A stretch of DNA of 64,000 nucleotides, from assembly GCA_964428355.1 (NCBI GenBank), contig CAYRYU010000009.1:13043-77042 (forward strand). Reading direction: 5' to 3'. The notes beneath the pieces were generated by a model. The model made no database searches and had not been told where the DNA came from. It worked only from the letters and a program-made list of their open reading frames with translations. This DNA comes from an uncultured bacterium. Its GTDB lineage: Bacteria > Muiribacteriota > Ozemobacteria > Ozemobacterales > Ozemobacteraceae. The translations under genes and the position numbers were made by a program. Numbering within the stretch: position 1 is the first letter of the stretch; every line of letters starts with the position of its first letter. Shown piece after piece: positions 26,227 through 50,245 of this stretch.

Positions 26227-27864
26227 ATGAAAATAAAGAAAGCGTTCCTGATTCTCCTTGCAGTGGGAACCCTTGTTGTTGGTGTATTGGCGGGCTTCCT
26301 ATTGGGAACCACCTCCGGTCTGACCACGATCATCTCCTTCACCGACGGTTTTCTCGGTAATCCCCCCGGGTTCAACCTTTCCCTGGGCGAGTTCTCAGGC
26401 TCGGTCTGGAATGGAATCAGGATCGCGACCCTCTCTGGGACGCTCCCCGGAGAAAGGCTCCAGTTCGCTGCGGAGGGCTTGGAGGTTTCCCCCGGCCTGA
26501 CATCGATCTTTGGGGGAAGGTTGCGTATCGTAAGCCTCTCGTGCAAATCGTTCATGATCGAGGGCGTTCCGCGCCCGGGTTGGTTGGAGGGAATCCCGGA
26601 TATTCCCCCATATGGGTGTTTTGTCGGGGCACCCCCAGTGGTGGAACTGGGCGAAGCCCATCTGGATGTTTTCCGCTGGTTTCCTGCGGCTTCCGGCCCC
26701 ATCGAACTGCAACTCACCGGACTGGAAATTGGAAATCCCCCTTCGGGTCGGGCTCCACACCCCCTCAGATTTTCCTGCGCGGCCCTTTTCCGGAATCGCC
26801 CCCTTTTCACCGCATCCTTCACGGGGAGGCTTGGAATCCAGAAAGCCGAGGCGGGAGGAAGTTTCACCGCCAGACTTCTCGATCAACCAGTCACCGGGGA
26901 GATCAACGTCGGGCGCAAGAAGTCGGGGTTCTCTGCCAGCGGGGTCACCAACCCTGCCTCTTTCGACCTGACATCGATCTTCCGGTGGCTTTCCCCGCTA
27001 TGGATCAAGGAGTTTCCCTTCGGATTCGACGGGTTCCTCGATTTCGGCGGTTCCTGGGTCTTCGATTCGGACCTTGGCTTCAGCGGGAACCTCGGCGGGG
27101 AGATCCGGAAGACCCGTCTGGTCGCTCAAGGACTTTTCCTGACGATTTTCGAACTCAACTCGAAATGGAAGCTTTTCAACGGAAAGCTCGACTTCGAAGA
27201 TTCGGGAAGCACTTTTGCCGGGTTTCCTGCCAAGCTTGCCGGGTCACTTCGGCTCCAGGATTCCGCCCCCCCCACAGATCTGGTCTTCGAGGTCGCCAGT
27301 CTTCCGATGCGGGAATTCATCCAGAATCTTCCATGGCTCCTCACCAGGAATCTCCAGCTGGCTGCGATTTCCGGAACCGGAAGCCTTTCCGTCCACCTCT
27401 CGGGAACCCCACCGGATCTTCTGGCAACCGTTCGCCTTCCGGAAATCGACATTGTCAATCTGGGAACACCAGCAAAACTGGACGGGACACTGACGTGGCG
27501 GTGGAGCTTCCCCCAGCCGCCCTCGTGCCATGTTTCCTGCTCCTGGGTTGCGACCGCGGCAGTTCCCCTTGTTTATTCCGCAGTCCAGGACGGTCGAAGC
27601 CCGTTGATTACCACCCTTCTCCCTCCAGTGAGGTTCCAGGGCGTGTTCACCGGGCCGTCGCTGATGGAGGGGGCATTCCAGGGAAGCATCGTTTCCGCCG
27701 GGGCCAACTACTCGTTTTCCAGCCCCATGTTCAACGGAAAATGGACCGGATTCGAAGTGACTCAGGCTGACGGGGAAGGCCGGCCGATCCCGCAGGGGAC
27801 CCGCTTTCAGGCAGGATCGGATGCCCCCCCGCTCGGGTTCCTGCTTCTCCTCCTGGGCAAGTAG
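26227..27864 (+). CDS. Membrane-anchored hypothetical protein (AsmA-like/DUF748-like) with a hydrophobic C-terminal tail
   Basis: 545 aa with an N-terminal transmembrane anchor, a Gly/Ser/Phe-rich body and a …PPLGFLLLLLGK C-terminus. Family assignment is tentative. Confidence 0.5.
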   Translation: MKIKKAFLILLAVGTLVVGVLAGFLLGTTSGLTTIISFTDGFLGNPPGFNLSLGEFSGSVWNGIRIATLSGTLPGERLQFAAEGLEVSPGLTSIFGGRLRIVSLSCKSFMIEGVPRPGWLEGIPDIPPYGCFVGAPPVVELGEAHLDVFRWFPAASGPIELQLTGLEIGNPPSGRAPHPLRFSCAALFRNRPLFTASFTGRLGIQKAEAGGSFTARLLDQPVTGEINVGRKKSGFSASGVTNPASFDLTSIFRWLSPLWIKEFPFGFDGFLDFGGSWVFDSDLGFSGNLGGEIRKTRLVAQGLFLTIFELNSKWKLFNGKLDFEDSGSTFAGFPAKLAGSLRLQDSAPPTDLVFEVASLPMREFIQNLPWLLTRNLQLAAISGTGSLSVHLSGTPPDLLATVRLPEIDIVNLGTPAKLDGTLTWRWSFPQPPSCHVSCSWVATAAVPLVYSAVQDGRSPLITTLLPPVRFQGVFTGPSLMEGAFQGSIVSAGANYSFSSPMFNGKWTGFEVTQADGEGRPIPQGTRFQAGSDAPPLGFLLLLLGK

Positions 27865-29324
27865 GGTCGGAACTCGATGGTTTCCTCGGGCAGTTTCTGG
27901 CCGATGCTGGTCGAGAAGAGATCCCGGGAAACCGCATGGCGTGATGATCTGATAGTGACGGTGGTCCCGGCATGTATTACCATCCCCGAAACCGTCGCAT
28001 GGGTCTCTTCCAGCAGGAGGAGGGCAAGATCCGCTTTTTTCAACTCGAGCTTGAGAATCTGCTCCTGAAGACTTCGCGCCCTCTGGCGCATCATCGCGAG
28101 AACCTGGACACGCATGTCGCCTTGAAGGACCCCGGTGCCTTCTTGAAGGAATTTCAGGTTCTTTTCCACCGCCTCGCTCTGGTTCTTGACGTCATCCAGG
28201 ATTTTTACCACCAGGTTGAGCCTTTTCAGATCGGTATGGGAAACCCCGCACAGGATTTCGGTACGGGTTCCCGCTGCATTCCCGATCTCCCCCACTTCGA
28301 CAGACTTGAAGGAGGTGACCGATCCACCAACGATGCTCTTCACAACCGAGATCATCCCGTTGGAGGAAAGATGCGAATTCATCGCCGCCCCCAGTTGGAT
28401 ATCCCCCTGGGCGGTCATCCGGACGTTCTCCGCGAAAAGTGCCTTGATTCCGCCAAAGGCCTTGATCTCGGGTTCGACTTCTGCTGTCATGCCCGTTCCA
28501 AGTATCCCCTTGAAAACCACAAGGTCACCCCCGGCGGTGATCTTTGCACCGGGTTCGATGTTTCCGAGGACGGTCAGGTTTCCCGTGACGGCAACGGTGA
28601 ACCCCGATCGAACGGCACCGTGGACGACGGCGGAACCCTTGAAGTTGATGTTGCCCGAAGAGAGATCGACATCCCCCTTGATATCCAGGACCGGGGAAAT
28701 GCTCACGGTGAGGGTCCTGGGGCCACTCACCCAGACGACCTGGCCGAAGGAGTCCGCCCGGGCGGTGGTCCTTCCGTCGGTTTCGGAAATCAGGGAGACG
28801 TGGTTACCCGCCAGAATTCGGAATTCCGGTGAAGCGGGCGCCGGGATTTCCTTGTCGAAAACCGTTTTTCCCGGAAGACCCGGAACCGGGGGGTGCAGAA
28901 CGGCGATGGTCTCGCCCGGAGCCACACTCCGAAACCTGTCCTGACTCTTGTAATCCATTGAGCCGTCCGCCCTGAGAAGGAACTCGCCGGAGGGCCTTGG
29001 AACGATGAAATCGACCCGGGGCGGCCTTCCTTCGGTCGGTTTTCGGCCCGCGGCGATCATCTTCCCGAAAAAGGGAACCCCCTTGTCGAGGAGTTCCGGG
29101 AGCTCCTCGCTGAGGAATCCGACGCATGCGGTTCCGGGAAAGTTCTCCAGGACCGCCATCCGGATTGCAGCCAGGGTGGTCTGGAAGTCGAAGGACGGAG
29201 GAAGCTTTTCGACCTCCAGATAGGCTTCCGTGGCATCCCGGTTCAGGGAGAAGATGGCCTTCATCCCCGCAAGAATCGGGGCTTCAACCTTCTGCCTGTC
29301 GGGTGGCCAGGAAACGGCCACCAT
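27807..29324 (-). CDS. FapA/DUF342-family protein (beta-helix repeats, C-terminal coiled coil)
   Basis: 505 aa. …ISPVLDIKGDVDLSSGNINFKGSAVVHGAVRSGFTVAVTGNLTVLGNIEPGAKITAGGDLVV… is the characteristic DUF342 repeat region. Confidence 0.75.
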   Translation of the reverse strand: MVAVSWPPDRQKVEAPILAGMKAIFSLNRDATEAYLEVEKLPPSFDFQTTLAAIRMAVLENFPGTACVGFLSEELPELLDKGVPFFGKMIAAGRKPTEGRPPRVDFIVPRPSGEFLLRADGSMDYKSQDRFRSVAPGETIAVLHPPVPGLPGKTVFDKEIPAPASPEFRILAGNHVSLISETDGRTTARADSFGQVVWVSGPRTLTVSISPVLDIKGDVDLSSGNINFKGSAVVHGAVRSGFTVAVTGNLTVLGNIEPGAKITAGGDLVVFKGILGTGMTAEVEPEIKAFGGIKALFAENVRMTAQGDIQLGAAMNSHLSSNGMISVVKSIVGGSVTSFKSVEVGEIGNAAGTRTEILCGVSHTDLKRLNLVVKILDDVKNQSEAVEKNLKFLQEGTGVLQGDMRVQVLAMMRQRARSLQEQILKLELKKADLALLLLEETHATVSGMVIHAGTTVTIRSSRHAVSRDLFSTSIGQKLPEETIEFRPYLPRRRSRNPSGGASDPA

Positions 29325-29326
29325 CC

Positions 29327-49701: not shown

Positions 49702-50112
49702 ATGAAAAGGGATTTTTTTGCGGGCCTTTTGGTTTTGATTTTGGTTTTGTCACTTCCGGCCGCCTGTTGGGCACAGAGCTCTCCTGATTTGTCTGAAGAG
49801 GAGAGGGCCAAACTTGGACTTCCATCCGCTCAAGCGGGTGACATCTCCAAGGTACCCCAACCATCGGAGCAGGATGAAGAGTTCGTCGCTTCATTGACTC
49901 CGGAAGTCTATGATGCCGTGGACGAATACGTAAAAACCGCTCGCAACCTGGATTTCAAGTCGAAGGGAAAGATCCACGCCGCCAAGATGATCGGCAACTT
50001 CTACCTCCTCTGGATTTCCCAGCCTGACGTTTTCGATGGAGGTTTCGAGCTGATCTATTCCGTCGAGAAAAAGAGGATAGTAGGTTCATTCTTCGCGGGA
50101 TACAAGGGCTGA
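49702..50112 (+). CDS. Small secreted hypothetical protein (136 aa, signal peptide)
   Basis: MKRDFFAGLLVLILVLSLPAACWA signal. Flanked by promoter and palindrome or terminator elements. Confidence 0.55.
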   Translation: MKRDFFAGLLVLILVLSLPAACWAQSSPDLSEEERAKLGLPSAQAGDISKVPQPSEQDEEFVASLTPEVYDAVDEYVKTARNLDFKSKGKIHAAKMIGNFYLLWISQPDVFDGGFELIYSVEKKRIVGSFFAGYKG

Positions 50113-50188
50113 GCTCTGGGAATTGGTCCTTCCGGAGCCCGTTCGAACCCCCCGGACCATTGAATCGAAGAAGGCAGAATCCGGGAAT

Positions 50189-50245
50189 CAGAAAATCGGG
50201 GACATGAGAATTTTTTGAAAAGATTCTCATGTCCCCGATTTTCTG
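50189..50245. terminator. Long perfect inverted repeat (23-bp arms cagaaaatcggggacatgagaat / attctcatgtccccgattttctg, 11-nt loop) followed by a T-rich tract; a bidirectional terminator or protein-binding palindrome
   Basis: Arms at 50189–50211 and 50223–50245, followed by ttttctgattttctcgg. Confidence 0.6.

Follow-up and report, generated by a model that had tools for sequence, protein, structure and literature searches.

A lineage-specific 18.5-kb insertion of probably mosaic content splits the promoter region between a Big_5 gene and the V-type ATPase operon in an uncultured member of the Ozemobacteraceae

Contig CAYRYU010000009.1 of assembly GCA_964428355.1, which derives from an uncultured bacterium of the Ozemobacteraceae, contains at positions 13,043 to 77,042 of its forward strand the stretch of 64,000 nucleotides that is called the window here and in whose numbering all coordinates are given. 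Between ndk (25640–26113, + strand) and the V-type ATPase operon, which begins at 50386 on the + strand and encodes subunits E, C/DUF2764, A, B, D and I, lies a block of about 24 kb that a preliminary description proposed as a candidate accessory island of cell-surface and toxin genes. The gene inventory, which is based on six-frame open reading frames (ORFs) together with Pfam and NCBIfam scans of the window, has confirmed that the genes described for this block are present where they had been placed. Signal and anchor sequences were judged by eye from the translations, and seven of the listed proteins carry such a sequence at the N-terminus. Comparison with related genomes has shown that the block consists of two parts. 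The part from 26.2 to 31.7 kb is conserved core synteny of the Ozemobacteraceae/Riflebacteria and lies outside the insertion, and the part from ~31.77 to 50.29 kb is a lineage-specific insertion that splits an ancestral promoter region. Roughly three quarters of the proposed block is accessory relative to the family.

The conserved part contains three core genes. The first one (26227–27864, +) encodes a 545-amino-acid protein with an N-terminal membrane anchor, whose family is not recognised. The label AsmA-like that it had received finds no backing, since the protein has no Pfam match at E ≤ 5 and no NCBIfam match, with AsmA, AsmA_2, TamB and DUF748 included in the searches. The second one (27807–29324, −) encodes a FapA/DUF342 protein (Pfam FapA, E 1.3e-46; FapA_N, E 1.7e-17). 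These two genes are convergent and their 3' ends overlap by 58 nt (27807–27864), and an overlap of ~34 nt is likewise seen in a related locus, L003. The third one (29327–31705, −), which is the left anchor of the insertion site, encodes a 792-amino-acid secreted protein with a signal peptide, four Big_5 Ig-like domains (Pfam Big_5, E 1.7e-52) and a putative SLH-like C-terminus. As to the SLH label of this protein, the C-terminal 157 residues give no Pfam SLH match at E ≤ 5, and residues 679–760 show a weak NCBIfam match (E 1.2e-4) to the SLH-bearing N-terminal part of SomB porins.

Loci of relatives were found through FapA in GTDB genomes and through a Big_5 alignment in JGI metagenomes, where a scan with the single Big_5 protein gave nothing and a scan with a four-sequence alignment gave 11 loci. 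All window proteins were mapped by tblastn onto 14 related loci, 13 of which reach the insertion site, and the closest genomes are metagenome-assembled genomes of Candidatus Ozemobacteraceae/Riflebacteria. The order Era–HEAT–NtrC–PtsN–HATPase–ndk–545-aa protein–FapA–Big_5 is identical in the relatives wherever their contigs cover it. The order ndk, 545-aa, FapA, Big_5 is unchanged in all relatives with coverage, whose proteins in this part are 27–50 % identical to those of the window. Orthologues of the 545-aa protein, at 27–29 % identity, are located beside ndk and FapA in L002, L003, L004, L005 and L013; FapA orthologues are 43–46 % identical and syntenic in L002–L005, L007 and L013; and Big_5 protein orthologues are 38–56 % identical in 14 loci. 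The gene order is thus conserved among relatives from 26.2 to 31.7 kb, and this part of the proposed island is syntenic throughout, but the order is not conserved from 31.77 to 50.29 kb, the part that stands as accessory because it is absent from 12 of 13 relatives.

In these 12 relatives (L002–L005, L007–L011 and L013–L015), the site is empty, and the Big_5 gene is divergent from vatE-C-A-B-D-I at a distance of 220–790 bp. This adjacency is kept down to 38 % protein identity and in genomes of 40–64 % GC, which is unusually stable for a pair of loci with no obvious functional link. The sole exception is L012 (ORJL011558524.1, 1–5096), in which the Big_5 orthologue is not beside the V-type ATPase operon. 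Upstream of the L012 Big_5 orthologue there are unrelated genes instead, which encode a protein of 882 residues, a secreted protein of 181 residues and a transporter of 430 residues, and therefore the intergenic site has been altered in a second lineage, too.

Both ends of the insertion retain pieces of the ancestral Big_5/vatE spacer. At the left junction (31706–31770), which is the Big_5-proximal remnant, positions 31706–31760 align with the Big_5-proximal ~55 nt of the spacers of L002, L003 and L004, and the similarity ends after ~31760. At the right junction (50290–50385, +), which is the vatE-proximal promoter and ribosome-binding-site remnant, ~50290–50385 aligns with the vatE-proximal ~95 nt of the same three loci, including the TATAA box and the GGAG ribosome-binding site. 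Since the two halves of one spacer are found at the two ends in this intergenic alignment, the insertion extends from ~31.77 to 50.29 kb and measures 18.5 kb. The junction spacers have GC contents of 43 % and 45 % and together make up the divergent promoter region of the ancestor, one half at each end, whereas the internal spacers have 53–62 % GC, so that the AT-rich intergenic regions ascribed to the whole block are limited to the two junctions.

In a neighbour-joining tree of VatA and VatB, the window is nested between L015, L008/L010 and the L002/3/5/13 clade, and the site is empty in each of these. Because the window is nested in empty-site lineages, the insertion is a gain and not a loss elsewhere; on this tree a single gain is a much more parsimonious explanation than at least three precise losses. 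The opposite polarity, in which the block would be ancestral and deleted in the relatives, and an origin of the block as an assembly or binning chimera would draw their strength from the sampling and the source: only about 14 related contigs are available, none closer than ~80 % identity in VatA/B, and the sequence comes from a metagenome-assembled genome. Ancestral loss would demand at least three independent precise deletions, each of which restores a short promoter region, since no fewer than four empty-site lineages surround the window in the tree. As for a chimera, contig L030 from the Logan assembly of SRR12133404 covers window positions 26914–37648 at 99.99 % identity with the left junction included, and the Logan contigs L016 (38160–54430, 100 %) and L017 (46185–54436, 99.99 %) cover the right junction in SRR12133403 and SRR12133404. 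Both junctions recur in Logan assemblies made independently from two runs, which makes a chimeric join unlikely; in addition, one contig is 54 kb long and the composition is uniform. Taken together, ancestral loss or a chimera is very improbable as an explanation of the block.

The contents of the insertion are a mosaic of two very large proteins with predicted export and binding functions, a Sel1-repeat protein, two small secreted orphans, a pyridoxal phosphate (PLP)-dependent decarboxylase and a stump of a RES gene. At 90 % identity, all proteins of the region are singletons among 15 billion proteins, members of the same population excepted, and even in VatA/B the closest genomes share ~80 % identity with the window.

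The most unusual component is a giant secreted or anchored protein of 1515–1517 amino acids (~32010–36557, +), which has lectin-type heads at its N-terminal side. It consists of β-trefoils of the fascin/FRG1/DUF7910 type, a β-tripod of the Vps62 type (Pfam Vps62, E 2.9e-14) and a C-terminal module of ~700–750 residues. PMC7613979 and PMC8624791, citing Zaitseva et al. 2019, describe the domain matched by Vps62 as a β-tripod that serves in target recognition and was originally observed in GNIP1Aa, an insecticidal toxin of the MACPF type. In agreement with this, the β-tripod region matches residues 343–446 of GNIP1Aa (6FBM) with an E-value of 1e-3 as a single sequence and of 9e-19 as a family profile, and a PDB sequence search matches the N-terminal β-trefoils to the accessory domain of a GH18 protein (7ZOH). 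Residues ~620–730 look jacalin-like by eye, and Pfam gave no support to this assignment. A word-index search finds only one non-self homologue, P0002, which is 50 % identical and is located among unrelated genes on L001 (JGI 3300037657, Ga0401392_0000064). The tetranucleotide signature of L001 correlates with that of the window core at 0.90, above the values of confirmed Ozemobacteraceae relatives (0.83–0.85), and this hints at a related organism.

The C-terminal 752 residues of the giant protein contain no Pfam or NCBIfam domain, including known effector domains (MACPF, aerolysin and Toxin_10). A HMMER search with this module yields 99 representatives among 1.84 billion proteins, and in 9 of 10 of them checked by Pfam the module is preceded by lectin-type heads (Vps62, RicinB, Fascin/FRG1/DUF7910 or Tectonin); the remaining one, P0123, is 831 residues long and is without any Pfam domain. 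An AlphaFold2 model of the module, with a predicted local distance difference test score (pLDDT) of 78, shows a long series of β-strands of 8–14 residues followed by ~120 residues of A/K-rich helix. A Foldseek search with this model against PDB and BFVD gives a best template-modelling (TM) score of 0.14, and the helical tail has weak phasin and apolipoprotein matches in one relative. A lectin-targeted function in membrane binding may reasonably be conjectured. A wider proposal, that the giant protein belongs to an undescribed family in which interchangeable lectin heads (β-tripod, β-trefoil or tectonin) deliver a conserved β-rich module of ~700 residues whose amphipathic helical tail resembles apolipoproteins or phasins and that this family represents a new glycan-targeted class of membrane-binding or membrane-damaging proteins, acting as toxins or as surface tethers, is tentative and, on balance, doubtful. 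With GNIP1Aa-type toxins and other lectin-targeted pore formers, the giant protein shares the combination of a β-tripod with β-trefoil lectin-type modules. It differs from them in that it has no recognised effector domain and that its C-terminal module has no Pfam or PDB fold match.

Downstream of the giant gene, on the opposite strand, there is a RES-domain ORF of 157 codons (36914–37387, −; Pfam RES, E 1.6e-9). RES proteins form a family of cytoplasmic toxins of toxin–antitoxin (TA) systems. The relatives of the window copy, which come from Ozemobacteraceae/Riflebacteria and are 70–81 % identical to it, are all 181 residues long, and this identity is far above that of FapA (45 %) or the Big_5 protein (50 %) to their own orthologues. 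In the alignment, the window copy begins at about residue 26 of the relatives, and so the first ~25 codons are gone. Homology at the DNA level (77 % over 427 nt) ends, like that of the protein, at ~37380, about 20 bp from the start of the Sel1 gene. The RES and Sel1 genes are arranged head-to-head with 15–33 bp between them, and the start of the Sel1 gene abuts the point of truncation. An AlphaFold model of a full-length RES relative (pLDDT 92), which matches MbcT, NatT, ParT and Res with a probability of 1.0 and a TM score of ~0.6, has residues 8–19 in a long β-strand. According to this model, the window copy lacks a core β-strand that is present in full-length relatives. Residues R18, E39 and S118 are located in invariant columns of the alignment.

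The antitoxin is missing, too. Three contexts of the relatives were examined, and in each of them the gene for the toxin overlaps the stop codon of an upstream gene for a protein of 139–141 residues, which shows weak but correctly ordered matches to Xre-like-HTH (PF20432) and Xre_MbcA_ParS_C (PF09722). A tblastn search of the 64-kb window with the antitoxins of the relatives gives nothing (best E 0.84), and the Sel1 gene, which has the opposite orientation, fills the space upstream of the RES ORF. Two small ORFs (36709–36939 and 37389–37754) were considered as the RES antitoxin and rejected; neither has a family match, and the second is antisense to the well-supported Sel1 gene. The intact pairs have three different surroundings: L022 (JGI Ga0377238_005266) contains Rep3, a resolvase, a primase and many TA pairs; L024 (JBAQPJ010000008.1) contains genes for a D5-type primase and DUF3854 together with an excisionase-like gene (HTH_17); and L027–L029 form an AIPR/ParE/PIN island, in which AIPR is an abortive-infection gene. 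When the whole insertion is compared with L022 and L024 by tblastx and blastn, RES is the sole match. The elements that bear intact RES–Xre pairs are packed with HigB, HicB, BrnA, RelE, ParE and PIN/MazE genes, and L022, L024 and L027–L029 are candidates for plasmids or defence islands in this phylum, which is uncultured.

By these comparisons, the RES ORF can be described as the 5'-truncated remnant of a RES–Xre pair of mobile-element origin. It shares with the known RES–Xre TA systems (MbcT–MbcA, ParT–ParS, Res–Xre and NatT–NatR) the RES domain, the conserved R, E and S residues and relatives of 70–81 % identity that are paired with an Xre antitoxin, but it has neither an antitoxin nor its first ~25 codons, and so it is a remnant and not a TA system. 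A cell is not expected to tolerate a complete RES toxin whose antitoxin is absent, and for this reason the stump is probably inactive or silent. The earlier view of RES as a toxin of the island does not agree with the truncation or with the absence of an antitoxin from the window. The stump is probably the trace of mobile-element DNA that was formerly present at this site and later eroded.

The Sel1 gene (37403/37421–38539, +) encodes a secreted protein of 372 residues with Sel1 repeats (Pfam Sel1, E 1.5e-27) and the signal peptide MKTRRVFLLLFVLLGTAWA, and is followed by a hairpin terminator at 38578–38603. An ORF next to it, orf95 (38577–38864), was rejected as a gene; its GC content at second codon positions exceeds that at third codon positions (GC3), it has no hits, and its start lies inside the Sel1 terminator hairpin. 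The largest gene of the insertion (39089–47194, +) encodes a putative surface protein or adhesin of 2701 residues, which has a lipoprotein-like signal together with 15 Big_5 and two PPC domains and carries an RCC1 β-propeller (Pfam RCC1 and WD40_RLD) at its C-terminus. The gene contains internal repeats with a period of 327 nt. As in Big_5/SbsA-type adhesins and S-layer proteins, Big_5 domains occur in tandem behind a leader, and the neighbouring core gene combines Big_5 domains with a putative SLH-like anchor. The 2701-aa protein differs from this type by the addition of the two PPC domains and the RCC1 β-propeller, and an anchor domain and dedicated secretion genes have not been identified for it.

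The right-hand part of the insertion contains three genes. A secreted protein of 270 residues (47328–48140, +) with a signal peptide, as judged by eye, and a central helical region has no match in Pfam, NCBIfam or PADLOC. The gene for the PLP-dependent decarboxylase (48151/48160–49542, +; Pfam Pyridoxal_deC, E 2.7e-23) follows at a distance of 10–19 bp. The enzyme is a Group II decarboxylase, and the scores tie it to no particular equivalog such as MfnA, PanP, GAD or HDC: its best NCBIfam match is MfnA with 125 bits against a cut-off of 299, and it falls below every equivalog cut-off. Thousands of homologues at 67–71 % identity are spread over Acidobacteriota, Chloroflexota, Bacteroidota and other groups, and Riflebacteria provide none that is closer. 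One of the homologues, P0005 (L018–L021), is located among GH127 glycosidases. The third gene (49702–50112, +) encodes a secreted protein of 136 residues with a signal peptide that ends in LPAACWA, and this protein, too, is without a match in Pfam, NCBIfam or PADLOC.

The repeats that had been noticed around this small secreted gene are real. The 14-mer CGGGGACATGAGAA occurs four times in the 64 kb, always flanking the gene for the 136-aa protein. Two copies are arranged in tandem with a spacing of 27 nt at the decarboxylase stop codon, within a tandem pair of repeats that contain GGGACATGAGAA and start at this stop codon (49529–49580, +), and the other two form the arms of a palindrome. A 25-nt direct repeat (84 % identical) brackets a unit of 630 bp that holds the gene. 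At the right edge of the insertion (50186–50248, +), a perfect 31-nt palindrome is followed by a T-rich run, and this arrangement suggests a terminator-like element. A search of the loci of the relatives did not find the 14-mer. The 14-mer repeat may be a terminator, an operator or the footprint of a cassette.

The inserted genes lie close together and are enriched in exported binding proteins, and the lectin heads and large C-terminal module of the giant protein resemble the receptor-targeted toxins treated in PMC8624791. These features would fit a lectin–toxin–adhesin system, or a secreted toxin with accessory proteins, in which the giant protein, RES and the adhesin cooperate, a functional link that the preliminary description had raised. 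The RES ORF is truncated, however, lies on the opposite strand with no room for a promoter of its own and has no antitoxin. When the neighbourhoods of homologues were sampled for three inserted gene families, those of the giant protein, the decarboxylase and RES, they turned out to be mutually unrelated. In the contexts examined, no homologue of the giant protein occurs together with one of RES, and RES homologues are never beside lectin-headed or Big_5/RCC1 genes of the type found in the window. Pfam and PADLOC reveal no secretion-system or immunity genes, and PADLOC identifies no defence system among the inserted proteins. With the contexts unrelated and RES truncated, the proposed link finds no support, and a cooperating system of this kind is extremely improbable. 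The 270-aa gene and the decarboxylase gene may be co-transcribed, and this is the only hint of coupling within the insertion.

The composition of the insertion is that of the core genome over most of its length. The giant gene has a GC3 of 0.74 and a Karlin-type codon distance of 0.145, and the adhesin gene has values of 0.69 and 0.152; both equal the core genes, and the two together make up about 70 % of the insertion. The 270-aa gene (GC3 0.72) and the decarboxylase gene (0.70) are core-like as well, so that codon usage and GC3 are core-like over about 85 % of the insertion. When the tetranucleotide correlations to the core are ranked against core segments of the same length, the percentiles are 86 for the giant gene, 44 for RES–Sel1, 11 for the adhesin gene and 53 for the right-hand genes. 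The contrast with the flanks that had been claimed is therefore absent, since codon and tetranucleotide usage of every block falls inside the spread of equally long core segments. The lower GC3 of RES does exist (0.62 against about 0.73) but is not distinctive, because Sel1 (0.62) and the 136-aa gene (0.59) have values just as low, and so do two core genes, vatE (0.65) and vatC (0.59). Individual terminators likewise fail to set the block apart: 25 terminator-like sites are found against 26.3±6 in shuffled sequence, and only the hairpins at 38578–38603 (Sel1) and 50194–50240 stand out. In the wider window, both flanks are unremarkable: the left flank contains ffh and genes for signal peptidase, CorC transporters, Era, NtrC and PtsN, and the right flank contains GlmM. 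Among the housekeeping genes, a gene at 14716–17385 encodes a protein of 889 residues that consists almost entirely of ankyrin repeats (Ank_2, E 3e-126), and this gene is located in the most GC-rich part of the window (64–66 %).

Searches for traces of mobility gave negative results. ARAGORN finds no tRNA in the window, Pfam finds no integrase or transposase domain among the window proteins, Rfam at the gathering threshold finds nothing in the window, and no direct or inverted repeat of ≥12 nt is shared at the junctions. The RES stump is thus the sole trace of a mobile element. With a native composition, and with mobility genes and repeats not found, the insertion shows no sign of recent transfer. 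It resembles genomic islands in being a contiguous 18.5-kb block that is absent from relatives, has conserved anchors and carries surface and secreted protein genes together with a TA remnant, and it differs from them in the lack of an integrase, a tRNA target, direct repeats and compositional deviation. The insertion could represent a single genomic island, acquired in one horizontal event by an integrative element or plasmid that later lost its integrase and mobility genes and left surface and secreted proteins as cargo. The additional DNA is confined to a single site, with a conserved anchor on either side; the copies of the TA remnant in relatives are always on plasmid-like, primase-bearing or defence islands; the GC3 of RES, Sel1 and the 136-aa gene is somewhat lower (0.59–0.62); and the decarboxylase has its best matches in other phyla at 71 %, with none closer in Riflebacteria. 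Apart from the missing integrase, transposase, tRNA and flanking direct repeats, such an origin is opposed by the codon and tetranucleotide usage of the two giant genes, which is indistinguishable from that of the core, and by the equally low GC3 of vatE and vatC, which weakens the GC3 argument. The window-like signature (0.90) of the contig bearing P0002 hints that the family of the giant gene is native to the lineage, and the neighbourhoods of the homologues have nothing in common. A single island is hence unlikely, although it keeps more than a marginal place among the explanations.

These observations make it probable that the 24-kb block is a conserved core part plus an 18.5-kb lineage-specific mosaic insertion, rather than a recent transferable island or one system. 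A plausible sequence of events would start from a Big_5 gene that was ancestrally divergent from the V-type ATPase operon over a short promoter region. One or more acquisition or rearrangement events may then have taken place at this permissive intergenic site, splitting the promoter region, and mobile-element DNA may have been involved in at least one of them. The mobility functions, the antitoxin and the 5' end of the toxin gene would have been deleted afterwards, and enough time would have elapsed for the composition to look native. In this sequence of events, both the number of events and their order are conjectural.

Several points weigh against the mosaic reading. Native composition suits an old acquisition and an intragenomic relocation equally well. 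The co-oriented genes, namely those for the giant protein, Sel1, the adhesin, the 270-aa protein, the decarboxylase and the 136-aa protein, possibly have a shared function, and the contexts were sampled in only three inserted gene families. The reading frame of RES remains open and retains the conserved R, E and S residues, so that residual activity is possible. The sampled genomes include no close relative, so that any age, event count or presence/absence polymorphism proposed for the insertion would be tentative.

Under the mosaic reading, the island that had been proposed is to be redrawn as an 18.5-kb mosaic insertion with a fossil toxin. It is a fresh instance of a known phenomenon, the placement of lineage-specific DNA for surface proteins at a permissive intergenic site, and RES–Xre pairs circulate on the mobile and defence elements of the family. 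If the C-terminal module of the giant protein is membrane-active, it would be a new type of effector beside the known receptor-targeted toxins. The insertion may remodel the cell surface and the secretome through adhesion or through the binding of glycans or other targets, and the locus shows where one uncultured Riflebacteria lineage has diversified its surface and secretome.

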